Positions 5,261 through 58,171 are shown, numbered from the stretch's first letter. The stretch is DNA of 60,000 bases from a bacterium (GCA_030537465.1 JAUNMP010000002.1:1-60000); one strand, 5' to 3'. The notes: generated by a model from the letters alone, not told the origin. Made by a program: numbers and translations.

Positions 5261-6490
5261 TCAGTTGAAGTCGGTGGCGGGCACGATCTTCACCTTCATG
5301 CCCTCGCCCAGCTTGTGGACGCCCTGCACGACGATGCGCTCGCCGGCCTTCACGCCCTCCATGACGCGGACCTTGCCGTTCGCACGGGAGCCCGGGACGA
5401 TCTCGCGGAAGTGGACGACGTCATCCTCGCCCACCATCCAGACTCCGGTTGCCTGCCCGCTCTTGGCGACGGCGAGATTCGGCACCACGGGGACGGGTTC
5501 GGGGCTGGCCTCGTCCGCCAGCACCGTCACATACGCGTTCGGCACCAGCACGCGGCCCTTGTTCGGGAAGAGCGCGCGGATGATCAGCGTCGCCGTGGAG
5601 GCGCTCATCTCGTTGTCGGAGAACTCCCAGTCGCCGTTCGCCTGGTAGATGGAATCGTCCGCCAGGCGCAGACGGAGCCGACGCGTGTCGCCCACCTTCG
5701 CGCCATGGGCGTCGGCGGAGCGTCCCCAGGCGAGATAGGCGCGGTCCGTGATCGGGAAGCAGACGCGGACGGGGTCCGTCTGAACGATGCGCGCAAGCGC
5801 CTCCTTGGACGGCGACACATAGTCGCCAGCATGGCGCAGACTCTTACCGATGCGGCCGGAGATCGGTGCGTAGATCCTCGTGTGCTTCATGTTGAAGGCC
5901 GTTGAGGCGAGCTTCGCCTCCGCCTGCAAGACCGCGGCCTTTGCTGCAACCAGTGCGGCCTTGTCGGAAGCGAGTCCCGTCTCCGCAGCATCCATCTCGG
6001 TCTGCGTGATGCCACGGGAATCCGCGGCCTGCAGACGCCGCAGCAGACGTTCGGCGCGCTCGACCGCGGCCTCCGCCTGAATGACTTTGCTCTTTGTGGC
6101 GGAGACTTCTGCCTTTGCCACGCCCTCATCCGCAGCATAGCGTTCGTCATCGATCTCGAAGAGAAGATCACCCTCCTTGACCAGATCGCCCTCGGCGAAC
6201 CTGACCGCCTTCAGGTAGCCTTCGATCTGCGGCAGAATGTCAACCTCCTGCACGGGCTCGACGTGGCCGATGAACTCCTCGGGCGGATTGAAGATCTCGG
6301 CATGGACCTCGTCCACGGCAACCGACGGAATGCGTGCGTCAACACGTCCGGCCTTCTTCTGCTCGCCGCCCCAGAACGCATGCGCGAACCAGCCGACGCC
6401 AAACACCGCCACCAGGGCGCAGGCATGCACAAACACCCCCGCGGCGAAACGCGCGGCGGATCCCTTCCTATCAGCAGTCTCTCCGCTCAT
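5261..6490 (-). CDS. Efflux RND-type periplasmic adaptor (membrane fusion protein, HlyD/AcrA family)
   Basis: 409 aa with an N-terminal TM segment, lipoyl/barrel-sandwich motifs and a coiled-coil hairpin (AEVSATKSKVIQAEAAVERAERLLRRLQ...AKAAVLQAEAKL), ending in a beta-barrel region. Confidence 0.85.
   Translation of the reverse strand: MSGETADRKGSAARFAAGVFVHACALVAVFGVGWFAHAFWGGEQKKAGRVDARIPSVAVDEVHAEIFNPPEEFIGHVEPVQEVDILPQIEGYLKAVRFAEGDLVKEGDLLFEIDDERYAADEGVAKAEVSATKSKVIQAEAAVERAERLLRRLQAADSRGITQTEMDAAETGLASDKAALVAAKAAVLQAEAKLASTAFNMKHTRIYAPISGRIGKSLRHAGDYVSPSKEALARIVQTDPVRVCFPITDRAYLAWGRSADAHGAKVGDTRRLRLRLADDSIYQANGDWEFSDNEMSASTATLIIRALFPNKGRVLVPNAYVTVLADEASPEPVPVVPNLAVAKSGQATGVWMVGEDDVVHFREIVPGSRANGKVRVMEGVKAGERIVVQGVHKLGEGMKVKIVPATDFN
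6481..6490. repeat. Target-site duplication, left copy (CTCCGCTCAT)
   Basis: Identical 10-mer at 8480-8489. It contains the reverse-complement ATG of the adaptor gene. Confidence 0.75.
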
Positions 6491-6516
6491 TGGAATTACC
6501 CCATTTTTTTGAGGGG
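6491..6516. repeat. IS left terminal inverted repeat TGGAATTACCCCATTTTTTTGAGGGG
   Basis: Reverse complement of 8454-8478 apart from one extra T in the homopolymer. Confidence 0.85.
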
Positions 6517-6757
6517 TGCCTCCAGCGCGTATTTTAACGAATTTGCGCGCGGAAATCCATCGGAAATTTCAACAAATTTATATTGATTTTACCCCCCCCC
6601 TCGCGTTTTTCGCAATTATACGCCAACTGATGCATTGTCGCCCCCTGTTGGCGGACACAAAAGCCGCCTTGACATCCGGACAATCGGATGCGTGCAGACC
6701 CGCCGAGAGCGGGAAATTCCACCCGCCGAAGGCGTTCTGGCGGGCGTTTTCCGCCTG

Positions 6758-8056
6758 TCATGCGCTTGAATAGTCGAAGTCGAACTCCATCTGCGGGTTC
6801 GGACGCTCCTTCTTCCTCGAGATGGCGGGGTTCCAGCGGGCATGCCGCATGAAGAGGTCGCGCACGCCGTCCGCGATGGCGTAGTAGTGGAACTCGGGCG
6901 TCCCGAAGATGCGCCGCGCGACGTTCGTGATGTGCTGGCGCAGGACCGCGCGCTTCTGGTAGAGACCCAGACGCACCGTGACGAAGTACGTCACCGCCAG
7001 CACGAGCGCCGCGACGTTGCGCACGCGCGCGAACATCAGGTTGCGCACCTCCTCGACGTGGTAGGACTGCTTCACGAACCGTATCGTCTCCTCGACGCGC
7101 CAGCGCGTCAGATAACCCTGCACGACCTCCCACACGGCGTCGCGCGTGTCCTCGAGCGCAAGTGTGGTCAGAAGCATCATCGGCGTCTTCCCGAACCCTC
7201 TCACGACCACGAGGCGCAGCTTCGCCCCGCCGACCTCGGGACGCTCCGCGTCCTCGGGCAGGCACACGTCGATCACGCCGAAGGATATCCTCGTAGGCTC
7301 GTCCTCGCCGTGGGCGTTGAACTCGATCCAGGCCTCGTATGGCGTATGGCATATCCTCGCCACCTGCTCGACCTCCATGATGTGTTTCTTCCACACCAGC
7401 CTGCGCGTCTTGATCAGCCGGACGATGAAGTCCAGGCCTTTCCTGAGGAAATAGAGGAAGAACTCGATGCGGTCGCCGCCACGGTCGTAGACGTAGATGC
7501 CGCGCCTCTTCGTCTCAGCGCATATGGAGTCGACGACCTTCTCGATCTCCTCGTTCTCGCTCCTGTAGAGGGGATCCTTCGCCGACCACACGCGGAACTG
7601 GAGCGGAACCACGCGCCGTCCGCCGTTCTCGCAGGCGATGGCCATACACCCCCAGTATCCGAGGCCCTCTCCCTTTTCGCCTCGGCTGCCGTCCCAGGTC
7701 CTGGCGAGGTAGTCCATCTTCTTCGCGTAGGGCTTCTGGATGTCGGACGGATCGACGATGATCAGCGTCCGCCGATGGACGAGCCGGGCGGCCTCCCTCA
7801 TCACCGCCTTGTGGATCTGGTCGCCCAGGGACGCCGTGCCGAGGTTGCGGCAAAGCCGCTCCTCCGTCTTTTTGGGGGTTGTCCCCTCGCGTAGTTCGTG
7901 GCCGATGCGCGTGAGCAACACGGACTTGGCGGCCTGGATGCCAAAGAGCATCTGGCCGATGAACTTCAGGAGCGGCACGGAAAAGTGGGGAGAAAATATC
8001 CCCAGAAAATCTTCAAGCTGCACTCGCGTCTGAAGGGCGGTTTTGCTATCATACAT
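6758..8056 (-). CDS. IS4-family DDE transposase (432 aa)
   Basis: ATG at 8056 preceded by AAAGGAGGGG. YLTRWRVEETIRFVKQ matches the IS4 Y(2)R(3)E(6)K motif. DDE-like IIVDPSD and YVYDRGGD blocks. Confidence 0.85.
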   Translation of the reverse strand: MYDSKTALQTRVQLEDFLGIFSPHFSVPLLKFIGQMLFGIQAAKSVLLTRIGHELREGTTPKKTEERLCRNLGTASLGDQIHKAVMREAARLVHRRTLIIVDPSDIQKPYAKKMDYLARTWDGSRGEKGEGLGYWGCMAIACENGGRRVVPLQFRVWSAKDPLYRSENEEIEKVVDSICAETKRRGIYVYDRGGDRIEFFLYFLRKGLDFIVRLIKTRRLVWKKHIMEVEQVARICHTPYEAWIEFNAHGEDEPTRISFGVIDVCLPEDAERPEVGGAKLRLVVVRGFGKTPMMLLTTLALEDTRDAVWEVVQGYLTRWRVEETIRFVKQSYHVEEVRNLMFARVRNVAALVLAVTYFVTVRLGLYQKRAVLRQHITNVARRIFGTPEFHYYAIADGVRDLFMRHARWNPAISRKKERPNPQMEFDFDYSSA

Positions 8057-8453
8057 GTGCGGTTCCCCTCCTTTGCTTTTCTTTTTTGCAATCGTATTGT
8101 ATACGATTTTAAGCGCGGAGGGAACCGCCCTTTTCGTGGGCGCGCGTCCTTCTTCAACCTGTGGAACTGTTTGCGTCTGTTCGCGCCGGTTCGTTCTGTT
8201 CGCGGTTCCCTGGCCGCTGTTCGGCTGGTGACGCGTTGGACAAGACCAGGCCGACGAAATGGAAATTCTCTTGGAACGTGCGTGGAACGGCAAATGGACG
8301 GGAAACGGTGCGAGGGCGGTTCCGCCGAGACGCCCGCCACTGCGGACGTCCCCGACACGCAGGGAAACTGGGAGGCCGGGAAGCGGTTTTCCACTTGCGG
8401 CGAAACCTAAAAGCGCATCCCAGCCTTTATTTACAAGGCTTCGCTACATTCAG

Positions 8454-8478
8454 CCCCTCAAAAAATGGGGTAATTCCA
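8454..8478. repeat. IS right terminal inverted repeat CCCCTCAAAAAATGGGGTAATTCCA
   Basis: Inverted match to 6491-6516. Also present at 28-52. Confidence 0.85.
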
Positions 8479-8479
8479 G

Positions 8480-8489
8480 CTCCGCTCAT
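8480..8489. repeat. Target-site duplication, right copy (CTCCGCTCAT)
   Basis: Identical to 6481-6490. One nucleotide (g8479) separates it from the IR. Confidence 0.75.
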
Positions 8490-8535
8490 GGTGACAGTAT
8501 ACCACATCTACCCAGGAAACGACGGCCTGCAAATC

Positions 8536-9798
8536 TCAGCGAGATTCCCAGGAGACGGACTTCGCGCGCTTGAGCGGGGCGTTGGAGCCAGGCTTCGAGG
8601 CGACCGCGCCATCCGACTGGACGGCGCCATTCAGCGTGACACCCTTGTAGACAAGGCCCGCACAGCCTGCGACCTGGACGGGATCGCCCTTCGCCTCCAC
8701 GTCGGCGGAGACGTTCTCCAACAGCACGGATCCGATCTCATGCCCCTGGTTGCCGATGAACCGCAGCGGACGGCGGCTCCGCACCTTGAGATTGCGGAAG
8801 ACGAATCCGTCCACCTTGCGGACCTTCACGCCGGGCTCGGAGACGATCTGGACGGCGCTGCCGGTGAAGTGCCCCGTGTAGTTCTCGATGGTGATGTTCC
8901 GGATATCCATGTATCCCTCGTCGTCCGATCGCAGGTAGCGCTCGGGGAAGTCGGCGAAGATGCCGTTGTTGCCCTCGGCGACGATGTCGCGGAAGACGGC
9001 ATTGCGGATCGTGTCGTCGGAGGGGCATCCCAGGCGGATCGTCTGGCAGCGGCTGTTCAGCACGCAGTTCGAGACCACCACGTCCTCGCACACGACGCGC
9101 TCGGAAGCCCCCTTCTCGCGCATTGCCCGCAGGATGAGGCAGTCGTCGCAGGTCTTGAAGCGGGAGTTGCCCACGCGGATGCGGCGGCAGCCGTCGAAGT
9201 CGATGCCGTCGTTGTTGATCATCTTCTGGTCGGCCGTGATCAGGATGCCGTCCACCGTGATGTCCTCGCAGAGGCGGATCAGCATCGTCCAGCAGGGGGA
9301 GTCCTTGAAGGTGACGCCCTGGAGCCGCACGCCGCGGCAGCGGACGAACTGCACCATGCGCGGACGCTCCACGGGCGGCTTCGGGTAGTAGCCCCATTTG
9401 CTGGCGGCCTTCGTGTCGAAGAACTTCGGGCCCTGCCCGTCGATCACACCCTCGCCCGTCACCGCGATGTCCTCGGCGTCCCACGCGTAGAGGAACACCT
9501 TGCTCGAGCCCTCGGGCTTGATCGAGCAGATCTCCGCGGGAAAGCTGTCGTAGTCCTCGCTCTTCGCGCCGCCCAGGAGGTTCGCCCCCTTGTCGAGATG
9601 GAGGTCGACATGGCTTCTCAGGCGCAGAGAACCTGTCTGGTAGTCCCCCGCGGGCACGACGACACGGCCGCCGCCCTGCGCCGCGACCTGGTCGATCGCG
9701 GCCTGGATGTCACGCCCCGTGTTCCCCTTCACCGTCACATCGACGGCCTGCGCCCACACGGCGCTTGCCACCACCAGAAACAACAACATGCCTCTCAT
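8536..9798 (-). CDS. Secreted pectin-lyase-fold glycoside hydrolase, GH28-like
   Basis: Signal peptide MRGMLLFLVVASAVWAQA. GH28-style N-terminus (IQAAIDQVAAQGGGRVVVPAGDYQTGSLRLRSHVDLHL). NNDGID and CDDCL catalytic-type motifs. The GHG motif was not recognised. Confidence 0.7.
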   Translation of the reverse strand: MRGMLLFLVVASAVWAQAVDVTVKGNTGRDIQAAIDQVAAQGGGRVVVPAGDYQTGSLRLRSHVDLHLDKGANLLGGAKSEDYDSFPAEICSIKPEGSSKVFLYAWDAEDIAVTGEGVIDGQGPKFFDTKAASKWGYYPKPPVERPRMVQFVRCRGVRLQGVTFKDSPCWTMLIRLCEDITVDGILITADQKMINNDGIDFDGCRRIRVGNSRFKTCDDCLILRAMREKGASERVVCEDVVVSNCVLNSRCQTIRLGCPSDDTIRNAVFRDIVAEGNNGIFADFPERYLRSDDEGYMDIRNITIENYTGHFTGSAVQIVSEPGVKVRKVDGFVFRNLKVRSRRPLRFIGNQGHEIGSVLLENVSADVEAKGDPVQVAGCAGLVYKGVTLNGAVQSDGAVASKPGSNAPLKRAKSVSWESR

Positions 9799-51065: not shown

Positions 51066-52151
51066 CTATTTACCCTCCTGGCGCAGCGCTTCCCCATAGA
51101 GCGCGCGCCAGGTCTCGCGGGCCTGCTTCTCCAGCTTCGCCTCGGCCTCCATCTTGGACTCTCCAAGTTTCCGGTCGTAGATCCAGAACGGCTTCTTCAG
51201 TCCGGCCCCGGCGTAGGAGAAGACGCGCGGGACTTCGATGAGCCGGCCGTTGTCCTTTCGGACAATCTTCGTCCCGTCCGTGAAAACAACCTTCGCCGTC
51301 TTCACGGATATCGCCGGCCGAGCCTCTGGCTTGACCTCGACCGGCACCTCGGGAGACTCGTCCTCGGCAACCTTCTCTGTCGAAGACTCCTGCTCTCGCA
51401 CAGGCTCGGACGCCTCCTCGCGCGCGGGCACCACCACCCGTTCCTGCACGACAGCCGCCAAACGGACTTTGCGCAGCTCCGCCTGCGTCTGCTCCAGAGT
51501 CTGCTGAAGCTCCCCCAGTCGGCGTTGCAGATTCACCACGTCCGTGTTCCGACGCGCGAGCTCCTGCCCCGTCTTCACCCGCGAATGGACAAGGAACAGG
51601 CAGATGAAAACCATCACGACGCCGAAGCCGAGGGCAACAGGCACTCCCCATCGCCCGGAGGCGGAGGGTTCGGAATCCGCCACAACCCGCAGCCCTTGCA
51701 CCAGGGAAGGACGGGCCATCACCTTCGCCCTGGGAATGGGCAGGTCCTTCGCCGGGCGGGACTTCGGAAGCTCCGGTTGCCCGACCGCGCCCTCCAATTC
51801 CTTCGGCGGCAGTTCGGGGACCGCCCGTTCCTCTTCCTCTCGTTTCGCCAGCAGGTCACGGAGATACCGCTTCGTCTCCTTGTCCCGCTCGAACCGAATC
51901 AGGTACTTGAGATCGTTCGGCGTCAGGGACGGTTCGATCTCCTCCAGGCACGCCTTATACTGCGCCGTGTCCGTCTTCTCGCCGAAATGCGTGGAGTAGA
52001 AGCCCAGGCCGATGAACAGGCGGGCACCGGGCGGGGCGAACCTGAAAAGCCGGTCAAGCTCCGGGTCCTGCCGGCAGGCAGAGATCGCGGTCCGGAAATC
52101 CTCCTCCGGGATGACGGGTCCGTCGCTCTCGATCACATCTTCTTCAGCCAT
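51066..52151 (-). CDS. Single-pass membrane protein with coiled coil (hypothetical)
   Basis: ATG at 52151 with a GAAGGGAAG Shine-Dalgarno (alternative GTG at 52181). TM segment WGVPVALGFGVVMVFICLFLV followed by a coiled coil LQRRLGELQQTLEQTQAELRK. Confidence 0.55.
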   Translation of the reverse strand: MAEEDVIESDGPVIPEEDFRTAISACRQDPELDRLFRFAPPGARLFIGLGFYSTHFGEKTDTAQYKACLEEIEPSLTPNDLKYLIRFERDKETKRYLRDLLAKREEEERAVPELPPKELEGAVGQPELPKSRPAKDLPIPRAKVMARPSLVQGLRVVADSEPSASGRWGVPVALGFGVVMVFICLFLVHSRVKTGQELARRNTDVVNLQRRLGELQQTLEQTQAELRKVRLAAVVQERVVVPAREEASEPVREQESSTEKVAEDESPEVPVEVKPEARPAISVKTAKVVFTDGTKIVRKDNGRLIEVPRVFSYAGAGLKKPFWIYDRKLGESKMEAEAKLEKQARETWRALYGEALRQEGK

Positions 52152-52167
52152 GGCAGAACTTCCCTTC

Positions 52168-53523
52168 TCAACGAGCGCCACCCCTCAGACCAAACGCGTA
52201 CCGAGGCCAATCCGGAATGTAGTCGCCCACCCCCAGCAGGACCGTAAGGTTCGGATGGTCGTCGGCTGGACAACCAGCCGAAAATTCTCCGCAGACCACG
52301 TGGCATGTCTTCGACCCGATCTTCGCCGCGAGCCAACCGTCCGGCTTCTCCGGGGACAGCACGCAGACGCCCTCCAGATGTGGGAAACGCACCAGCTCCG
52401 ACGGTTCCAGCATGGCCGCCTTTCCACAGAGCGTCAAATGACGCACACAGTCCGGAACGGCCTCCACCGAGTCCGCAATCCCATAAATGTCGCAAGACTC
52501 CTTCGCCCACGCGCGCAAAACGCGGCCGAAAGAGGCCCCCCCCAGCGTGCCCGCATCATACACGATCCACAAACGCGGCAGCCCGACATCCCAATTCTTG
52601 CCCAGGAAGGAAACGACCGTTCGACCAGCTCCACCATCCCGCGTGATGCGCGGGTTCCCATCCGACCCCTGCCACGCACCGATCATCTCCAGTCCGGCAA
52701 GGGCCACGCCTCCCAGCACACAGGCCGCGCCAAGCCCCCATCCGCACACCACCCACTGATGCCGCGCGCGAATCGCCCCCACAACGGGCACCAACGCCAC
52801 CGCGGGCAGCACCCAGAGCTCCCACGCCTCCGCGACGGAACTGAACAGGGACGCCGTCCCCAGGGCAAGCCACAGCGCGAGCGGCAGTCCCTGTCTTCGA
52901 CGGAGGCAGTGGACACCGCAGACCCCCAAGACGAACAACCATCCCGCCAGATAGGCGAGGCGTCCCCACCGCCCCAGCTCGACCAGCCACGTGAAATGGC
53001 TCCCCACCAGCGTACGATAGTTCTCCCGTCGTTCCACGGGCTGGTACCAACTCATGAAGGACGCACCCGAGTTTCCCAGCCCCCATCCGCCCGGGGCATC
53101 GGCCACCATGCGCGGAACGGCCTGCCAGAGGACCATCCGATTCCCCACGGACGCGTCCCGCCCGGGAGCCGCCTTGGACAAACGCCCGAGCGCGCTTCGT
53201 CCCACGGGAAGAGCCATGAGGCACGCGACCACGGCCAGCAGTGGCACCAGCCGCCGACCACTGAAGGCCAGAACGGCAAGAGCCCCCACAACCAGCGCCA
53301 ACAGTCCTCCCCGGGAGAACGTGTGCAGGAGCGCGTAGCAGAAGACGGAGAATAGGGCATAGCCCGCACATATTGTCCACCGGCGGTGCGCGGTGACGGC
53401 GCAGGCCAACGCCACCAACGCCAGAGCGGCAAAGAGAACCGCCGCCTTGTTGGGGTTGTCGAACCAGAGCTGCCAACGCGACATGCCCGCGTAGGAGAAG
53501 ACGTCTGTGGCGAACAGGCTCAT
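52168..53523 (-). CDS. O-antigen ligase (Wzy_C)-like polytopic membrane protein with an extra C-terminal soluble domain
   Basis: LLHTFSRGGLLALVVG motif typical of the Wzy_C/WaaL family, and about 10 TM segments. The ATG at 53523 overlaps the upstream stop (ATGA). Confidence 0.65.
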   Translation of the reverse strand: MSLFATDVFSYAGMSRWQLWFDNPNKAAVLFAALALVALACAVTAHRRWTICAGYALFSVFCYALLHTFSRGGLLALVVGALAVLAFSGRRLVPLLAVVACLMALPVGRSALGRLSKAAPGRDASVGNRMVLWQAVPRMVADAPGGWGLGNSGASFMSWYQPVERRENYRTLVGSHFTWLVELGRWGRLAYLAGWLFVLGVCGVHCLRRRQGLPLALWLALGTASLFSSVAEAWELWVLPAVALVPVVGAIRARHQWVVCGWGLGAACVLGGVALAGLEMIGAWQGSDGNPRITRDGGAGRTVVSFLGKNWDVGLPRLWIVYDAGTLGGASFGRVLRAWAKESCDIYGIADSVEAVPDCVRHLTLCGKAAMLEPSELVRFPHLEGVCVLSPEKPDGWLAAKIGSKTCHVVCGEFSAGCPADDHPNLTVLLGVGDYIPDWPRYAFGLRGGAR

Positions 53524-54491
53524 TCGTCCAGCCACCGGGACTGCAAGTCCTCCGGCAGCAGCATGCGGTATTCAAGCGGAATGCAGGAGAAGTCCTCCAC
53601 GGGGAAGACCATCTGGTTCTTGACATCGGCGACCATCGCCGCCGAGGCGAAGATGTCCTCCCAGTCCGGCTGCACGGGCTTCCCGCCATTGCGGCGCGTG
53701 GCCCGCGCATATTCGGCCAACGCGTAGTCGAAGCACGCGCGTCCCAGCAGGCCGGATTTCGCGGACCCCTCCAGGTGGCTGACGCCCGCGTACGCCTTGT
53801 ACACGATGGGATAGCGCATGTCGCGGACAACACGGAAGAACGCCAGTGATCGTTCATAACCACCATCGAGACGCTCTCCCGTCGTGAGGCACCAGAGGAC
53901 CTTCCGTCCGGCCTTCGTCGGCTCGTCGAAACTGCCCGGGATGTTCGTGTGCACCGCCAGGAACCGCTCAGGTTTCCGAAGCGCAAGACGCTGCACGAAC
54001 TGTCCAGCACCACAACTCCCCGCCATCAAGAAGCCGGACTCGGGGATTCCATGGTGCTTCGCGAACCAGGCGATGCCGAAATCCCAGCCCAGCGACACCT
54101 GGTCGAACGTGACGTCGATCTGACGCGCCTTCTCGCGCGGCAGTTCGTTCCAGTTCTTGTTGGGATCCCAGATGCTGCGCGAGCCCCAGGCGACGATGGC
54201 AAGCTGGCGTTGCTCCGCATAATCGTAGAGTCCCCCCTTGCCCGCGCTGACCTTCTCCTTGACCTCGGCCGGGCTATCCGCAAGCAGACAGAGGCAGAGG
54301 ACGCCCTTCACAGGCACCCCGCCACGCGGCAGACGCAAAAACATCGTCAGCTGAGGGTAGTTCTTCGCCTTCAGCTTCTCGACGTGCTCGATGACATCCA
54401 CCACCTCGACAGCGCCCCCTCCCTTCGTCTCCGCCGCGGGGCAGAGTCCAGCCAGGAAGGACGCCGCGAGAAGCAGCGCACGCTTTGTCAC
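53520..54491 (-). CDS. Secreted hypothetical protein, possibly alpha/beta-hydrolase-like
   Basis: GTG at 54491 overlaps the peptide stop (GTGA); an alternative ATG is at 54524. Signal-like TKRALLLAASFLAGLCPAA. AGSCG nucleophile-elbow-like motif. Confidence 0.55.
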   Translation of the reverse strand: MTKRALLLAASFLAGLCPAAETKGGGAVEVVDVIEHVEKLKAKNYPQLTMFLRLPRGGVPVKGVLCLCLLADSPAEVKEKVSAGKGGLYDYAEQRQLAIVAWGSRSIWDPNKNWNELPREKARQIDVTFDQVSLGWDFGIAWFAKHHGIPESGFLMAGSCGAGQFVQRLALRKPERFLAVHTNIPGSFDEPTKAGRKVLWCLTTGERLDGGYERSLAFFRVVRDMRYPIVYKAYAGVSHLEGSAKSGLLGRACFDYALAEYARATRRNGGKPVQPDWEDIFASAAMVADVKNQMVFPVEDFSCIPLEYRMLLPEDLQSRWLDE

Positions 54492-54781
54492 TCGTTTCCG
54501 TTCGGCTTGTCCGAGGCCGCGCATGTATCCGTCTTGCAGACGGGAATCGGCGGCTGCGCATCGGGAGCCGGAGCCCGGCAGGAGTCCTGGCCCTTGCCGC
54601 CGCTGTTTCCGCAGCTGTCGCCGTGAGTACCTCCGGTCGAACAGGCGTCCTTGCCGACCTGGCATCCCATCACGCCCTTCTCGGCGTCGACCGCGGGGGC
54701 CGCGACCAGCGTGAAGTTCGCCAACGAACCCGCCGCGACGCAGGCCACCAGCCTCTCGCTGAAGTTCTTCCTCGTGATCAT
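54488..54781 (-). CDS. 97-aa Cys-rich peptide, candidate RiPP precursor (hydrophobic N-terminus, six Cys and four D-x-C motifs in the C-terminal 58 residues)
   Basis: The ATG overlaps the rSAM stop (ATGA at 54778-54781). Sequence MITRKNFSERLVACVAAGSLANFTLVAAPAVDAEKGVMGCQVGKDACSTGGTHGDSCGNSGGKGQDSCRAPAPDAQPPIPVCKTDTCAASDKPNGNE. Confidence 0.6.
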   Translation of the reverse strand: MITRKNFSERLVACVAAGSLANFTLVAAPAVDAEKGVMGCQVGKDACSTGGTHGDSCGNSGGKGQDSCRAPAPDAQPPIPVCKTDTCAASDKPNGNE

Positions 54782-56178
54782 GTCACTTCTCCTTTGTTCG
54801 TCTGTTGCCTTCTCTTCAAATCCAGATACCAGGCCCCCTGGCGAATGTTCCCGAGGACCTCGTCGCAGTAACTCGGGTCCATCCGGAACGTGCCGTCCTC
54901 GCGGGCCACCGCCCAGGGACACGGCCCGCCGCAGATCCGGTACGCCCAGCACTTCGAGCAGGTCTCCTTCACGCAGGCGCGCCAGTTCCGCCAGAACGCC
55001 CGACAGCGATCAAGGTCGGGGCCCTCCGCCATCGTTCCGACCACCCAGTCCTTCATGCCGACGAAGCGGTGGCAGGGATAGAGCGTTCCGTCCGCCCCGA
55101 CCGTCGTCGTGCCGCGGCAGGCCCCGCAGCGGAATGGCGACACGCCCGGCGCACGCGCGCAGACCTGGTCCTCCTCGAGATCGGAAAAGGGATTGTACTT
55201 CGGCTCCCGTCCCGACGCGACCTCGTCCAGCATCCAGGGCACGACCTCGTCCGCCGTCTGGCGTTCCATCTGCCTGCGGTCCTCCGCCGTGAAATCGCAC
55301 GCGCTCGGGAAAATCGGATTGGAGACCGGCCCCAGAACGATGCGCGTGAAGCCGAATCCGTCGAAGAAGCGGATCAGCTTCATCAGATCCGGAACGGGAT
55401 GCGCCATCGTGCAGCGCACGGTCACGCGGCTGCGGCGCTTCATCAAGCGGCGGATGCCGGCTGTCGCGAGGTCCCACGACCCGTTGCCGTCGCGCGTCGG
55501 ACACTGCGCGTCGTGCAGCTCCTGCGGACCGTCCAGGCTCACCATCAGCCCGAAGTTGTAGGTCTTGATGAGATCGATCGCCTCGTCGTCGAGCAGCGTG
55601 CCGTTCGTCGTCATCACGTATTCGGCCTTCACCCCACGCTCCGCGGCGAGCTTCTGGCTGAGCGCGATCGCCTCCTTCATCACCTGCTTGTTGAGCAGCG
55701 GCTCCCCGCCGAAGAACGTGATGGAGACGTCGTCCTTTCCGCTGTGGGCGAACAGCCATTCGACGGCCCGTCGTGCGATTTCGGACGGCATCAGCCCGCT
55801 GTTCGGCACCTCGTCGCGGCAGGTCCCGCAATAACAGTACCGGCAGGCGAGGTTGCACCGCTCTGAAAGCGACAGCTCCAGCCTGCTCCAGTTCTCCGAA
55901 TACCTGCGCGCCAACGCCTCCTCGAATTCGGAATCCCCACAAAGCTCTGCCTCAACAGGCTGGAAGAATCCATTCGCCTCCAGCGTCCCGACCTCCGCCA
56001 GCACGTCCACCGCAGCCGGATGCCGTGCGCGGAACTTCGCCTCCACTTCGTCCTTCGAGAACGTCTGCCGCAGCTCCAGGTAGTCGTAGGCGGCACGCGA
56101 GATGGACATGAACTTTCCGAGGGCCCGATGGTAGACGAACGGCACACCCCGATACTCGAAGAGATGATAGGGCGTCAT
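54778..56178 (-). CDS. Radical SAM/SPASM-domain peptide-modifying enzyme with an N-terminal RRE-like extension
   Basis: 466 aa. CNLACRYC (Cx3Cx2C) at residues 108-115. C-terminal auxiliary-cluster cysteines (CGACRG...YPCHRF...CSKCWAYRICGGPCPW). About 100 aa precede the rSAM core. Confidence 0.8.
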   Translation of the reverse strand: MTPYHLFEYRGVPFVYHRALGKFMSISRAAYDYLELRQTFSKDEVEAKFRARHPAAVDVLAEVGTLEANGFFQPVEAELCGDSEFEEALARRYSENWSRLELSLSERCNLACRYCYCGTCRDEVPNSGLMPSEIARRAVEWLFAHSGKDDVSITFFGGEPLLNKQVMKEAIALSQKLAAERGVKAEYVMTTNGTLLDDEAIDLIKTYNFGLMVSLDGPQELHDAQCPTRDGNGSWDLATAGIRRLMKRRSRVTVRCTMAHPVPDLMKLIRFFDGFGFTRIVLGPVSNPIFPSACDFTAEDRRQMERQTADEVVPWMLDEVASGREPKYNPFSDLEEDQVCARAPGVSPFRCGACRGTTTVGADGTLYPCHRFVGMKDWVVGTMAEGPDLDRCRAFWRNWRACVKETCSKCWAYRICGGPCPWAVAREDGTFRMDPSYCDEVLGNIRQGAWYLDLKRRQQTNKGEVT

Positions 56179-57350
56179 GGCGTCATGTCCTTTCCGTCCA
56201 GGCGCAGACGCCGGACCTTCCCGTCCTCCGCATACCAGCGCTCCTCGCGCGCCGGGAGGGAATTCCCTTCACGTTCTTCGGTTCCCCGCGAAAGGCGGTG
56301 GAAGACAATCCGACGCCTGCTGTCGTACGAATAGTCGTTCCGGTGCAGGAGCGCGCCCTTCCGCGTCTTCTCCGACCAGCGCATCAGGCCATACAGGTCG
56401 CCGGCCGGGAACCGCGCCCACTTGTACTGCGTGCCATCCGCTTCGCGGTACTCTCCCTTCCCATTTGCCAGATTGAACCAGTAGAACTCCTGGCGCCCAT
56501 CAAGATTCAGTCGGCTGATGGACGGATTGTTCCACTCGGGCTTCCGCTCCCCGAACGTGTAGCTCCAGCCCCCATAGGAACCAAGCCTCTTCGAATACCG
56601 GTCCCACGTCACGGTCAGGTCGCCGACCTTGAGCGACTCGGCGTTTCCGACGACCCCTCGGGTGAAGGTCTTCCGCAACCCGTCCGGCCACGTCATCGAC
56701 AGACTGTCCGCCCCCCGCTCCACAGCCACCGAGCCCTTGCCCGCGAATTGGAACTCAGCCTTCGAGCCCCCACGGGCGTCGCGCACCACGGTGAGCAGAT
56801 TCTGCCCCCGGCTGTTGATCTTCTCGAGATGCCGGCCGGAGTATCCGAAGTCGAATGTTCCCTCCTCCGTCTTCATCCGGGCCAGGCGTCCCTTCCGGAA
56901 CGACAGCACGATCCGTTCGCCACCACCGATGTCGCCCTGCAGGGAGATCTCGTCGCCCTTCGCGCGTCCGGACCAGACCCGGGGACTGGTCAGAACCTCG
57001 GGATTGTCCCGGCTCACGCGGATGTCGCGCTTCAGGCCATCCGGCTGGAGGAACTCGTAGGTCTTCTCGTCCACCGGCATGATCCGACTCTCCAGCAGCG
57101 GAATATGCCACCCGGGGCCCAGAACACCATGTGGAGCCGACTCGTCCGAAGTCCAGTACGCATAGAGCGGAATGGCCCCAACGTCGCCGAGCTTCTCGAC
57201 CAGAAAGGCCCGTCCCGCCGCGTCGACGCCCTCGAAGGGCCCCGCAAGTCCACTGAGCCGATCGAAGAGAAAGCTCTCCGCCATCGCCGACAACGCCAGC
57301 AAGGCCCCAAGCCCTCCAAGGACCAACCGTATGGACGACAGATGCGTCAT
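56175..57350 (-). CDS. Secreted beta-rich hypothetical protein with YD/RHS-like repeat remnants
   Basis: The ATG at 57350 overlaps the upstream stop (ATGA). Signal peptide MTHLSSIRLVLGGLGALLALSAMA. NDYSYDSRRRIVFH is a YD-like motif. Confidence 0.55.
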   Translation of the reverse strand: MTHLSSIRLVLGGLGALLALSAMAESFLFDRLSGLAGPFEGVDAAGRAFLVEKLGDVGAIPLYAYWTSDESAPHGVLGPGWHIPLLESRIMPVDEKTYEFLQPDGLKRDIRVSRDNPEVLTSPRVWSGRAKGDEISLQGDIGGGERIVLSFRKGRLARMKTEEGTFDFGYSGRHLEKINSRGQNLLTVVRDARGGSKAEFQFAGKGSVAVERGADSLSMTWPDGLRKTFTRGVVGNAESLKVGDLTVTWDRYSKRLGSYGGWSYTFGERKPEWNNPSISRLNLDGRQEFYWFNLANGKGEYREADGTQYKWARFPAGDLYGLMRWSEKTRKGALLHRNDYSYDSRRRIVFHRLSRGTEEREGNSLPAREERWYAEDGKVRRLRLDGKDMTP

Positions 57351-58171
57351 CCAATCCCTCGCTCCAGTTCCGCCCACGCCGACGAGAACTTCTTCAGGTA
57401 CTCGCCCCCCGGCTTCGCCGCCTCGACGACGATGAGGTCACGCACGCGCTGCTGCTCGACCACGTACTGCTCGGTCGTGAAAGTTCCCTTGAAGTGCTCC
57501 ACCCGCAGCCACAGCAGATAGGTCGTGAGCGCGTCGAACACGTTGTACTGCACGATCTCGCGTACCTTGCCCCCGTAGAACAGTCCCGCCACGTCGTCCC
57601 CCGTGGTGTCGAGTTTACCGGGGATTCCGCAGAGGTTCGCGATTTCGTTGAGGGAGCAGTTGTAGCCCTTCCCGCGGCCGCCGACCAGCTCCATCAGGTC
57701 GTAGGCGTTCATCTCCCAGGGCTTGCACTCCATCTGGTGCGCGAAGGACGGCAGGCGCAGTCCGTTCACGATCGCCCGCTGGGCGAGGATGTGCATGTCG
57801 GCGTTCTTCGAGTTGTAGCCGACCAGAAGCGGATTCGCCGTGCCGAACTTCTCGAGATAGCGCCTGAGGATGTCCGCTTCGGCGAGGGACTTGTCCTCGG
57901 GATTCTCGGGCAGCGCCCAGAGATGGAGCTTGACGCCGCCATCCTGCTCCTCCACGCGGACCACAGTTGCGATGGAGACGATGCGGCAGAGCACGGTCTT
58001 GAGGAACGGCTGGGGATTGGTCTCTCGGTCGAAGTCGGGACCGTTCTCCCACATCACCCGCATCACCTCGTCATCCGGAACATCCACGCCGAGATGGTAG
58101 AGGCGGCGCCCCGCCGTCATGTCGGGGGCCCACTCGCAGTCAAATGCCCAGACCTGTCGCTTCACCGCCAT
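57347..58171 (-). CDS. DEDDy 3'-5' exonuclease related to the PolB exonuclease domain (PF10108/COG3298-like)
   Basis: ExoI FDCEW, ExoII YNSKNADMHIL and ExoIII YNVFDALTTY motifs, 274 aa. Confidence 0.65.
   Translation of the reverse strand: MAVKRQVWAFDCEWAPDMTAGRRLYHLGVDVPDDEVMRVMWENGPDFDRETNPQPFLKTVLCRIVSIATVVRVEEQDGGVKLHLWALPENPEDKSLAEADILRRYLEKFGTANPLLVGYNSKNADMHILAQRAIVNGLRLPSFAHQMECKPWEMNAYDLMELVGGRGKGYNCSLNEIANLCGIPGKLDTTGDDVAGLFYGGKVREIVQYNVFDALTTYLLWLRVEHFKGTFTTEQYVVEQQRVRDLIVVEAAKPGGEYLKKFSSAWAELERGIG

Follow-up and report, generated by a model that had tools for sequence, protein, structure and literature searches.

The window, a stretch of 60,000 nucleotides of bacterial DNA (GCA_030537465.1 JAUNMP010000002.1:1-60000), encodes a radical SAM/SPASM maturase followed by a small protein rich in Cys and Asp. 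The first-pass annotation had taken the 97-aa peptide to be the substrate of this enzyme, and gene coupling, locus-wide pairing and the conservation of the leader and of the Cys/Asp positions support such an enzyme-substrate pair. All of its sequence observations are confirmed, and none of the computational conditions that it set for a refutation came true when examined. Judged by sequence, the pair belongs to a widespread and undescribed family whose substrates are export-signal-bearing proteins with 4 to 56 Cys…Asp units, and the window peptide is a minimal member of the substrate family. These units are probably stitched into thioether rings ahead of export. The features of the locus are the following (supporting evidence in brackets):

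52168..53523, minus strand: Wzy_C (O-antigen-ligase-like) membrane protein (PF04932, TIGR03097)
53520..54491, minus strand: secreted alpha/beta-hydrolase-like protein (junction, signal peptide, conserved motifs)
54488..54781, minus strand: gene of the 97-aa precursor, the putative substrate (ATGA coupling, 10 homologues, leader HMM)
54491..54682, minus strand: precursor core, with alternating Cys and Asp, six of each (translation, family statistics)
54683..54781, minus strand: precursor leader, Tat-like signal MITRKNFSERLVACVAAGSLANFTLVAAPAVDA (leader alignment of 40 representatives)
54778..56178, minus strand: radical SAM/SPASM maturase with N-terminal RRE-like domain, 466 aa (PF04055, NCBIfam, CteB alignment, AF2/Foldseek)
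54865..55128, minus strand: SPASM auxiliary-cluster cysteines C351, C354, C369, C407, C410, C416, C420 and C438 (translation, alignment, CteB/anSME alignment)
55834..55857, minus strand: CX3CX2C cluster motif CNLACRYC, maturase residues 108-115 (translation; invariant in 24 homologues)
55894..56178, minus strand: RRE-like winged-helix domain, about residues 1-95 of the maturase (model and alignment with the CteB N-terminal domain)
56175..57350, minus strand: secreted Rhs/YD-repeat-like beta-sheet protein, 391 aa from the ATG at 57350 (junction, homologues, AF2/Foldseek)

Translation and junction sequence confirm that the 466-aa and 97-aa ORFs overlap: the ATGA at positions 54781-54778 is common to the stop codon of the maturase gene (TGA) and the start codon of the precursor gene (ATG), with a Shine-Dalgarno-like AAAGGAG located 8 nt 5' of the latter. 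The junction sequence also shows the gene of the Rhs-like protein to be ATGA-coupled to the maturase start, whereas the hydrolase gene is GTGA-coupled to the precursor stop and the Wzy_C gene ATGA-coupled to the hydrolase stop. Ten protein-level homologues of the precursor (34-96% identity) indicate that the 97-aa ORF is a real gene.

The maturase is matched by PF04055 in a Pfam search (E=8.5e-19), and its CNLACRYC motif lies at residues 108-115, behind an N-terminal extension of about 100 aa, as first described. The SPASM-like cysteine cluster noted at its C-terminus turns out in the translation to be a full SPASM pattern (C351/C354, G364-x4-C369, C407-x2-C410-x5-C416-x3-C420, C438), in which C354...G364-x4-C369, C407-C420 and C438 match the seven-Cys form C-x9-15-G-x4-C ... 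C-x2-C-x5-C-x3-C ... C. The CX3CX2C motif and all eight SPASM Cys are invariant in an alignment of 24 maturase homologues. Because the Pfam SPASM model gave no match to the maturase at E<=0.01, the SPASM assignment rests on this Cys pattern, on homology with CteB and anSME and on the structure model. A sequence search aligned CteB (5wgg) with maturase residues 4-421, the CteB RRE included (E=1e-37), and Foldseek placed CteB as the top structural match to the AF2 model (pLDDT 90), over its full length (TM 0.76-0.79, 462-475 alignment columns), with anSME second (TM 0.63). The modelled N-terminal domain is composed of three strands (residues 4-9, 12-17 and 22-25) and then three helices (28-37, 42-52 and 57-68); this beta3-alpha3 order is that of an RRE, a winged helix with three strands and three helices, and the domain is described here as RRE-like. 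The maturase has no signal peptide.

The HMM and tree placement that the first-pass annotation had proposed assigned the enzyme to no curated family. Its best NCBIfam matches are the PapB, nif11, QhpD and SCIFF models (181-238 bits), all under their cut-offs. The top one, the PapB model NF047865 (238.4 bits, cut-off 340), is to be read as generic because genuine QhpD and SCIFF enzymes give 264-293 bits with the same model. The QhpD model TIGR03906 gave 192.6 bits (cut-off 453; positive controls L018 and L008, 615 and 516 bits) and the SCIFF model TIGR03974 180.8 bits (cut-off 425; positive controls L016 and L045, 751 and 477 bits). In the NJ tree, the maturase family forms a separate clade, distinct from QhpD and SCIFF. 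In the NCBIfam comparison, the nearest enzymes to the maturase are PapB, QhpD and SCIFF, which form Cys-Asp/Glu or Cys-Thr thioethers, and the family sits in this thioether-maturase supergroup as a clade of its own.

That the enzyme is not an anSME agrees with this tree, with CteB being its best solved relative and with the anSME models TIGR03942 and NF010321, which gave only 105 bits (cut-off 349) and 78 bits (cut-off 441). Kiritimatiellae are rich in sulfatases and anSME is the second-best structural match, which would suit a sulfatase-maturase-type enzyme next to an incidental small ORF. However, the RRE-like extension of about 100 aa is absent from anSME, the translated peptide has no C/S-x-P/A-x-R sulfatase target motif and both the sequence and the synteny of the small ORF are conserved. 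We thus reject the anSME identity; this explanation, already refuted by the tests run, is hardly credible.

The conservation of the small ORF next to enzyme homologues, predicted in the first-pass annotation, holds throughout the family. Of 87 family loci, 66 had a substrate detected by the leader HMM; of the other 21, 15 lack DNA past the enzyme gene and five encode the same repeats behind a divergent leader. Where DNA 3' of the enzyme gene is available (72 loci), 71 loci have a gene for a substrate-type protein close by, nearly always as the very next gene, and nearly all substrate starts lie between -13 and +150 nt relative to the enzyme stop codon. This pattern is seen in Kiritimatiellae, Verrucomicrobia, Chloroflexia and Anaerolineae. 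The substrates range from 85 to about 589 aa and contain 4-56 Cys repeats, some with low-complexity inserts (PEH, DK, TEDTCG); since large members reach 540-589 aa, 'RiPP' here grades into 'modified exported protein'. Asp makes up 15% of their residues, Gly 13% and Cys 9%. As expected from the earlier reading, the Cys/Asp positions are conserved: Asp is found at -2 in 94% of 718 Cys from 30 large substrates, with a modal Cys-Cys period of 10, and, in the family as a whole, a D/E separates 755 of 775 Cys from the following Cys or from the C-terminus. Asp is not universal, since L147/L148 hold Asn or His at the Asp position. No Pfam or NCBIfam model matched the substrates and our literature search found no paper describing the enzyme/Cys-Asp substrate system, in line with the initial impression that no described precursor class fits.

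The six Cys of the window precursor (C40, C47, C57, C68, C82 and C87) all fall within its last 58 residues, and the four D-x-C sites first noted are present (D45-A-C47, D55-S-C57, D66-S-C68 and D85-T-C87), with spacings of 10 (C47-C57) and 11 (C57-C68). At the Asp frequency of this tail, chance alone would place Asp at -2 of four or more of the six Cys with P ~0.0014. These 58 residues contain exactly six Asp, in strict alternation with the six Cys (C-D-C-D...), and can be read as six C-(x)2-8-D units. The translated 97-aa precursor ends in Glu and contains no Trp. C47, D55, C57 and D74 are conserved among the 10 homologues, and D45, C68, C82, D85, C87 and D91 are kept in at least 90% of the sequences.

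The N-terminus of the precursor was originally labelled as Sec- or TM-like. A signal-type leader is indeed present, but the family alignment points to a conserved leader of the twin-arginine type. The Tat pattern taken for comparison is [ST]-R-R-x-F-L-K followed by an h-region of mild hydrophobicity and a cleavage site of the A-x-A type. The 97-aa precursor matches the family leader HMM (E=3.9e-14) and displays T-R-K-x-F, an h-region with N22-F23 and a V-D-A cleavage-type site. The consensus of 40 representatives is [ST]-R-R-x-F-x(9-12)-G-x-L-[AST]-[HN]-F-x-L-[LV], with RR in 38 of them in the [ST]-R-R-x-F context; the window leader has R-K in place of R-R (T-R-K-N-F), and its close homologues have RK or RR. 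M1, I2, T3, R4, L11, A16, G18, L20, A21, N22, L25, V26 and A27 are invariant in these close homologues. The Tat-signal models TIGR01409 and PF10518 did not match the window peptide, and their best scores in the family, both for L004, did not pass the cut-offs (11.5 vs 16.7 and 16.1 vs 22.7, respectively). There are no tat genes within the 60-kb window; tatA-tatC adjoin the cluster in L086, L103, L124/L126 and L147, which are four distinct clusters. The leader sequences and the tatA-tatC neighbours of these clusters suggest that the precursor is probably exported via Tat.

Two pairings of Cys with Asp can be read in the core. In the first, each Cys would be linked to the Asp at -2 in a tight D-x-C ring, or D-x-C would be the recognition motif for another Cys modification. 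The frequency of Asp at exactly -2 in large substrates, far sharper than the Cys-to-next-Asp distance, and the position of four of the six window Cys in D-x-C speak for it; this near-fixed spacing is without explanation under a Cys-to-downstream-Asp model and could reflect a reaction between Asp(-2) and Cys themselves. However, the ends of the arrays are asymmetric: D/E occupies -2 for only 17 of 39 first Cys versus 676 of 731 later ones (Fisher p=7e-14), whereas 42 of 44 last Cys have D/E within 11 residues downstream. Moreover, in 14 representatives of the small-peptide subfamily D/E is found at -2 for 30% of Cys and at +7 to +9 for nearly every Cys, and the four conserved Cys all have D/E at +7 to +9 but, for three of them, usually none at -2. 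In the L006 substrate, from a sister clade, 19 of 23 Cys have D at +3 (C-x-x-D) and only 11 have D/E at -2. These three observations suggest a Cys-(x)n-Asp unit, and the strict alternation of Cys and Asp in the window core is in keeping with it. Both characterised Cys-Asp systems also use a downstream acidic residue: PapB joins the Cys sulfur to the beta-carbon of Asp and accepts C-Xn-D motifs with n=0-6 (PMC9413430), and QhpD forms Cys-to-Asp/Glu links such as Cys41-Asp49 (PMC7876137). By analogy with the orientation that these precedents share, and from the sequence statistics, a reaction of Cys with a downstream Asp is the more probable, so that D-x-C would be the junction of successive rings and not a three-residue ring; the tight-ring or recognition-motif reading is unlikely. 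Another SPASM chemistry, be it sactionine formation (S-C-alpha), C-C bonding, epimerisation or oxidation of Cys, may apply instead.

The operon partners of the pair are themselves conserved. Among the 42 loci encoding a homologue of the Rhs-like protein, most have it directly 5' of the maturase; its AF2 model (pLDDT 85) is matched by Foldseek to Rhs cores (E about 1e-9), and a distant homologue carries PF05593. The hydrolase, which has a signal peptide, has homologues in 30 loci with conserved G-x-S-[GA]-x-A-Q elbow, TTGE and G-L-G-H motifs, the window protein having a Cys in place of the nucleophile Ser of the family; its PDB profile matches to esterases are weak (E 0.5-1). The Wzy_C protein (PF04932, E=8.6e-11; TIGR03097, E=1.5e-5) is encoded in the same position in 22 loci. 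Some loci have no hydrolase and encode CarboxypepD_reg-like proteins instead.

This conservation of a secreted hydrolase and an Rhs-like protein in a translationally coupled operon would suit a QhpC-like, thioether-stapled subunit of a periplasmic enzyme complex with these two proteins, in place of a structural protein or a free natural product. QhpD is an RRE-bearing SPASM enzyme that forms several sequential Cys-to-Asp/Glu thioethers in the cytoplasm in QhpC, a periplasm-bound protein of about 100 aa (PMC7876137), and its model scores 193 bits on the maturase and 263-278 bits on Chloroflexi members of the family. The spacings are also comparable, C-x5-D, C-x7-D and C-x8-E in QhpC (PMC7876137) and C-x5-D, C-x7-D and C-x8-D in the window peptide. 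However, the window enzyme remains far under the QhpD cut-off and in a separate clade, the peptide has neither Trp nor a CTQ site and no qhpA/B/E/F/G homologues were found by Pfam and NCBIfam searches among the neighbouring genes. Substrates that vary from 85 to about 589 aa and from 4 to 56 repeats, and that include low-complexity inserts, fit a fixed subunit poorly, and the hydrolase is replaced in some loci. Whereas the QhpC leader is removed by QhpE and the protein exits via an ABC exporter, the window leader itself resembles a Tat signal. We consider such a subunit distinctly improbable.

An exported metallothionein-like metal binder with free thiols, the radical SAM enzyme acting elsewhere or performing a non-crosslinking step, would be in keeping with the Asp-, Gly- and Cys-rich composition, suited to cation binding, and with the Tat pathway, which commonly transports cofactor-loaded proteins. 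Against it, the maturase has a peptide-recognition (RRE-like) domain, the enzyme gene is coupled or adjacent to the substrate gene in essentially every locus of several phyla, the leader is conserved far beyond the needs of a plain signal peptide and the 1:1 Cys:Asp count is predicted by a pairwise cross-link, not by simple chelation. Free thiols for metal binding are therefore very improbable.

The explanation that we favour, with slightly better than even confidence, joins RRE-leader binding, Cys-(x)2-8-Asp thioether rings, probable Tat export and extracytoplasmic action with the operon partners. The RRE-like domain of the cytoplasmic enzyme would bind the conserved leader of the substrate, which would also be its twin-arginine-type export signal. 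The catalytic domain would take an H atom from each acceptor Asp, and the resulting carbon would be bonded to a Cys sulfur. The ring unit would be Cys-(x)2-8-Asp, from N to C, with six in-line rings in the window peptide (putatively C40-D45, C47-D55, C57-D66, C68-D74, C82-D85 and C87-D91), D-x-C being the end of one ring and the start of the next. The cross-linked product would be exported, probably via Tat, and its leader cleaved at V-D-A|E. The mature polyanionic, polycyclic peptide would then work outside the cytoplasm with the co-transcribed products, namely the Rhs-like protein, the alpha/beta-hydrolase and the Wzy_C protein. A broader proposal, to which we give somewhat less than an even chance, is that an RRE was recruited to read a Tat signal, leader and export signal being the same element, in a Tat-proofreading maturase that installs 4 to >50 in-line Cys-Asp rings in exported polypeptides as long as about 550 residues. 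The products would be a so far unrecognised class of polycyclic polyanionic extracytoplasmic proteins, whose partners in PVC bacteria and in Chloroflexi would be a Ser/Cys hydrolase, a ligase of the Wzy_C type and a dedicated shell protein resembling Rhs.

Several known systems resemble parts of this scheme. PapB/PapA (freyrasin) shares a radical SAM/SPASM maturase and a precursor with repeated Cys...Asp, Cys ahead of Asp, and PapA and the window peptide have six motifs each. In addition to the sub-threshold PapB score (238 bits against 340), the window family differs in its variable spacing (x2-x8, modal repeat 10, versus CX3D in PapA), its twin-arginine-like leader, its substrates of up to 540-589 aa and up to 56 Cys, and its Rhs-like, hydrolase and Wzy_C operon partners. 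CteB is the best solved relative by sequence and fold, including the N-terminal RRE and two auxiliary clusters; its characterised link joins Cys to Thr C-gamma. The window enzyme scores only 181 bits on the SCIFF model (cut-off 425), and SCIFF precursors, of about 45 aa with six Cys and without signal peptide, contrast with the substrates of the window family. Like the window system, anSME is a cytoplasmic SPASM radical SAM enzyme modifying a signal-peptide-bearing protein ahead of export, but it has no RRE domain and converts one Cys or Ser to formylglycine in C/S-x-P/A-x-R, and the window enzyme scores far under its HMM cut-off. In REMPs of the TorD/DmsD/NapD type, a cytoplasmic protein binds the Tat signal peptide and retains the substrate until maturation ends. 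The parallel with these Tat proofreading chaperones would be a conceptual analogy only, with no sequence or fold relation to the maturase, and the binding module of the window system would differ in being an RRE fused to the modifying enzyme.

To our knowledge, radical-SAM Cys-Asp thioethers are known from two settings only, the freyrasin peptide and the QhpC subunit, and PapB is already in use for peptide stapling. If the proposed mechanism is true, the window family would provide a natural enzyme that closes rings of widely varying size (from x2 to x8 and beyond) and acts in a highly processive manner, on up to 56 sites in protein-sized substrates. A leader that apparently doubles as a Tat signal would tie the logic of RiPP leaders to Tat quality control. 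The family marks an envelope module, conserved but so far undescribed, of Kiritimatiellae and Verrucomicrobia (organisms of gut and rumen) and of Chloroflexi.

The maturase gene lies in a compact cluster on the minus strand of the window (52168-58171), in which five consecutive junctions each consist of a four-base start/stop overlap:

Start/stop overlaps in the gene cluster
57350, minus strand: ATGA, PolB-like exonuclease gene (PF10108) to Rhs-like gene
56178, minus strand: ATGA, Rhs-like gene to maturase gene
54781, minus strand: ATGA, maturase gene to peptide gene
54491, minus strand: GTGA, peptide gene to hydrolase gene
53523, minus strand: ATGA, hydrolase gene to Wzy_C gene

Translation of the minus-strand ORF 54778..56178 yields a 466-aa protein with the radical SAM motif CNLACRYC at residues 108-115 and a series of C-terminal cysteines (C351, C354, G364-x4-C369, C407-x2-C410-x5-C416-x3-C420 and C438). 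The motif and, in the alignment, all SPASM cysteines are invariant across 24 homologues, and the C-terminal set reads as a complete SPASM pattern, in agreement with the radical SAM motif and SPASM-like cluster described in the first-pass annotation. The only Pfam matches are Radical_SAM and Fer4_12, and none of the cut-offs of the tested NCBIfam models is passed by the maturase or by its relatives from the loci L086, L004 and L005 (L-numbers designate loci of other genomes or metagenomes carrying relatives of the maturase).

Scores of the window's maturase against NCBIfam models
PapB: 238 bits (cut-off 340)
nif11-type maturase: 224 bits (cut-off 519)
QhpD: 193 bits (cut-off 453)
SCIFF maturase: 181 bits (cut-off 425)
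anSME: 105 bits (cut-off 349)

Genuine QhpD (L018, L008) and SCIFF (L016, L045) enzymes, used as positive controls, exceed their own cut-offs and also score 264-293 bits on the PapB model, indicating that the match of the maturase to this model is a supergroup signal and not a sign of membership. Among solved structures, CteB (5wgg; E=1e-37) is the best match, aligned over residues 4 to 421 and thus including the CteB N-terminal domain. In the AlphaFold2 model (pLDDT 90), residues 4-68 form three strands followed by three helices, a predicted RRE-type winged helix. Foldseek searches with this model ranked CteB first (TM 0.76-0.79) and anSME second (0.63); an anSME identity, already doubted from the sequence, was rejected on the score of the anSME model, far below its cut-off. 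In a neighbour-joining tree, the maturase family forms its own clade, apart from QhpD and SCIFF.

The TGA of the maturase gene overlaps the ATG of a 97-aa ORF (54488..54781, minus strand), which is preceded, 8 nt upstream, by the sequence AAAGGAG. The encoded peptide (MITRKNFSERLVACVAAGSLANFTLVAAPAVDAEKGVMGCQVGKDACSTGGTHGDSCGNSGGKGQDSCRAPAPDAQPPIPVCKTDTCAASDKPNGNE) contains six Cys in its last 58 residues, four of them within D-x-C (P ~0.0014 given the local Asp content), so that the coupling, length and cysteine pattern read from the sequence were all confirmed. The same tail contains exactly six Asp, which strictly alternate with the six Cys. A free-thiol metal-binding protein is an improbable rival reading of the peptide. 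Ten homologues (34-96% identity) have a nearly unchanged N-terminus and also retain C47, D55, C57, C68, D74, C82, D85, C87, D91 and the C-terminal motif SDKPxGNE. A spurious small ORF was rejected on the basis of these conserved homologues and of their syntenic pairing with maturase relatives, and a 154-aa version starting at a GTG was rejected because the homologues begin at the ATGA-coupled Met. A lipobox at L11-V12-A13-C14 was also discarded, since it lacks a preceding h-region and C14 is not conserved. Searched exhaustively as a profile, the peptide alignment retrieved 8 clusters only, suggesting that this subfamily is either rare or too short to be detected.

Of the 86 loci with maturase relatives that we collected, most (78) came from a metagenome scan whose query was a family-specific sub-alignment (A3); protein look-ups added 5 and a genome scan 3. 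A scan of the genome collection with the single maturase sequence gave no match, and one with the full-length alignment, which carries generic radical SAM patterns, gave at least three true family loci among the matches listed, the others being mainly SCIFF and QhpD loci, with L006 among a handful of further relatives. With the window included, 66 of the 87 loci contain an ORF that matches an HMM of the leader (the N-terminal part preceding the Cys/Asp-rich core). Among the 21 misses, 15 correspond to loci ending at the maturase gene, in five (L001, L104, L118, L120 and L128) the leader has diverged and the core after it is of the same kind, and one (L107) is ambiguous. The conservation of a small ORF beside homologous enzymes, proposed as a check in the first-pass annotation, is thus observed, most misses having no downstream DNA. 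The substrate gene starts -13 to +150 nt from the maturase stop codon in nearly all cases, and the junction is always ATGA in the subfamily of the window. This pairing is found in Kiritimatiellae, Verrucomicrobia, Chloroflexia and Anaerolineae, and the adjacent ORF very likely encodes the substrate of the maturase. In the locus L003, a partial duplicate of the SPASM end of the maturase separates two substrate genes (5880-6992, 7962-8492 and 8512-9660), through local duplication or as an artefact of the assembly.

The leader consensus is [ST]-R-R-x-F-x(9-12)-G-x-L-[AST]-[HN]-F-x-L-[LV], with RR in 38 of 40 representatives; the window's peptide has R-K and its closest relatives R-K or R-R. By its motif, the leader is shaped like a twin-arginine signal, and a polar-aromatic pair within its h-region is unusually conserved. 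Both tatA and tatC adjoin the cluster in several loci, immediately upstream of the maturase gene in L086 (4591-5749) and also in L103 (32-1081), L124/L126 (1506-2373) and L147 (3056-4044), and may be dedicated copies. The Tat-signal HMMs remained below their cut-offs on the substrates tested, and no tat genes are present in the 60-kb window. Taken together, the motif and the tatAC adjacency make Tat export by a dual-use leader plausible and rather probable.

The substrates range from 85 to about 589 aa, with 4 to 56 Cys in the core. In the large ones (30 representatives, 718 Cys), Asp occupies position -2 of 94% of the Cys, successive Cys are most often 10 residues apart and the repeat reads roughly C-P-G-G-x4-D-x. 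The largest array noted is in a 540-aa substrate (L086, 7505-9127) whose core has 56 Cys, contains about 30 tandem TEDTCG units and shows D/E at -2 of 55 of the 56. A variant substrate (L147, 1616-1966; L148, 5224-5574) has eight Cys in C-x7-C repeats and mostly Asn/His, not Asp, at -2; it may use a different acceptor residue. In L001 (7403-7747) and L111 (5783-6127), the D-x-C repeats of the window's peptide are replaced by low-complexity spacers, (PEH)n and (DK)n respectively, which connect the leader to the conserved C-terminal core; L001 is left with only two C-x5/7-D units. The last residue is Glu in 30 of 44 substrate representatives, and the ending, which commonly reads D-H-V-E, D-x-P-E or D-Y-V-E, comes directly after the final Cys-...-Asp unit. 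The window's peptide (C-terminus at 54491-54502) ends in D-K-P-N-G-N-E; this conserved tail could be a sorting, processing or first-ring signal.

The D-x-C repeats had been proposed as crosslink sites. The signature itself is real, but several patterns point to another unit. Only 17 of 39 first Cys of an array have D/E at -2, compared with 676 of 731 later ones (p=7e-14), and in 42 of 44 cases a D/E lies no more than 11 residues after the last Cys. In the small-peptide subfamily, with a typical core ...NPC-NGHGKA-D-Q-C-HGQGAKA-D...C-RSGARMGQ-D...C-RSAGGKE-D-HVE, D/E is present at -2 for only 30% of the Cys and at +7 to +9 for essentially all. In a sister clade (enzyme 36% identical), the L006 substrate (5558-6127; QRRRF leader) consists of C-x-x-D units: 19 of its 23 Cys have D at +3 but only 11 have D/E at -2. 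This also suggests from sequence that the association of a Tat leader with Cys-Asp repeats extends beyond the clade studied. All four patterns point to Cys-(x)n-Asp, read in the downstream direction, as the unit. The characterised Cys-Asp systems have the same orientation, from Cys to a downstream acidic residue: PapB modifies C-Xn-D motifs (n=0-6) at the Asp beta-carbon (PMC9413430), and the links formed by QhpD include Cys41-Asp49 (PMC7876137). The window's peptide would accordingly carry six in-line rings (C40-D45, C47-D55, C57-D66, C68-D74, C82-D85 and C87-D91). This downstream pairing leaves the sharp D-x-C spacing unexplained, which keeps alive the alternative of D-x-C micro-rings, or of another Cys modification. 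Considering the clade, the motif and the precedents, thioether chemistry on Asp is nevertheless plausible, with fair confidence.

Other proteins of the cluster recur with the pair. The Rhs-like family occurs in 42 loci, in most of them as the gene immediately preceding that of the maturase. The window's member carries a signal peptide, and its confident model (pLDDT 85) is a sheet of beta-hairpins; Foldseek matched it to Rhs/teneurin YD-shell cores (E about 1e-9) with low TM scores, indicating a fragment of such a shell, and a PDB profile search with the family gave no match. The hydrolase family (30 loci), encoded downstream of the peptide gene, has a signal peptide and conserves G-x-S-[GA]-x-A-Q, TTGE and G-L-G-H arranged as in an alpha/beta-hydrolase triad, its PDB profile matches reaching only E about 0.5-1. 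The nucleophile-elbow Ser, present in 16 of 18 aligned members, is replaced by Cys in the window (53520-54491, minus strand) and in L001 (8524-9477), with GSCGAGQ instead of GxSGAAQ. For the hydrolase, a start at the ATG at 54665 was discarded because of the 178-nt overlap with the peptide gene that it implies; translation from the GTGA-coupled start yields a normal signal peptide. The Wzy_C protein comes next in 22 loci, and in other lineages the partners are instead CarboxypepD_reg-like proteins; the PolB-exonuclease-like gene is outside the cluster in other loci. A 371-aa ORF (51066-52181, minus strand) shares 14 nt with the end of the Wzy_C gene. Its product has a charged, coiled-coil-like stretch and a single predicted membrane segment, and in other loci the ORF does not obviously belong to the cluster. 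The signal peptides and recurrent partner families suggest that the products are extracytoplasmic and belong to a conserved module.

The window's system is predicted to work in a similar way to PapB/PapA and QhpD/QhpC, and the QhpC genes caught in our scan carry C-x8-E, C-x5-D and C-x7-D spacings; that the peptide is a QhpC-like enzyme subunit is a less likely rival reading. The system nevertheless falls outside both, as neither the curated cut-offs were reached nor the defining partners found when tested. No curated model was found for the maturase-substrate system, Pfam and NCBIfam assign no family to the peptide, six larger substrates or the Rhs-like and hydrolase neighbours, and literature searches for a Tat-leader radical SAM or RiPP system and for Kiritimatiellae radical SAM peptides returned nothing relevant, consistent with the initial impression that no described precursor class fits. 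We lean slightly towards the proposal as a whole, i.e., an enzyme-substrate pair with Cys-Asp thioethers and a Tat-type dual-use leader. Its twin-arginine-type leader, tandem architecture scaling to protein size, variable ring size, conserved C-terminal acidic tail and operon partners all appear to be new.
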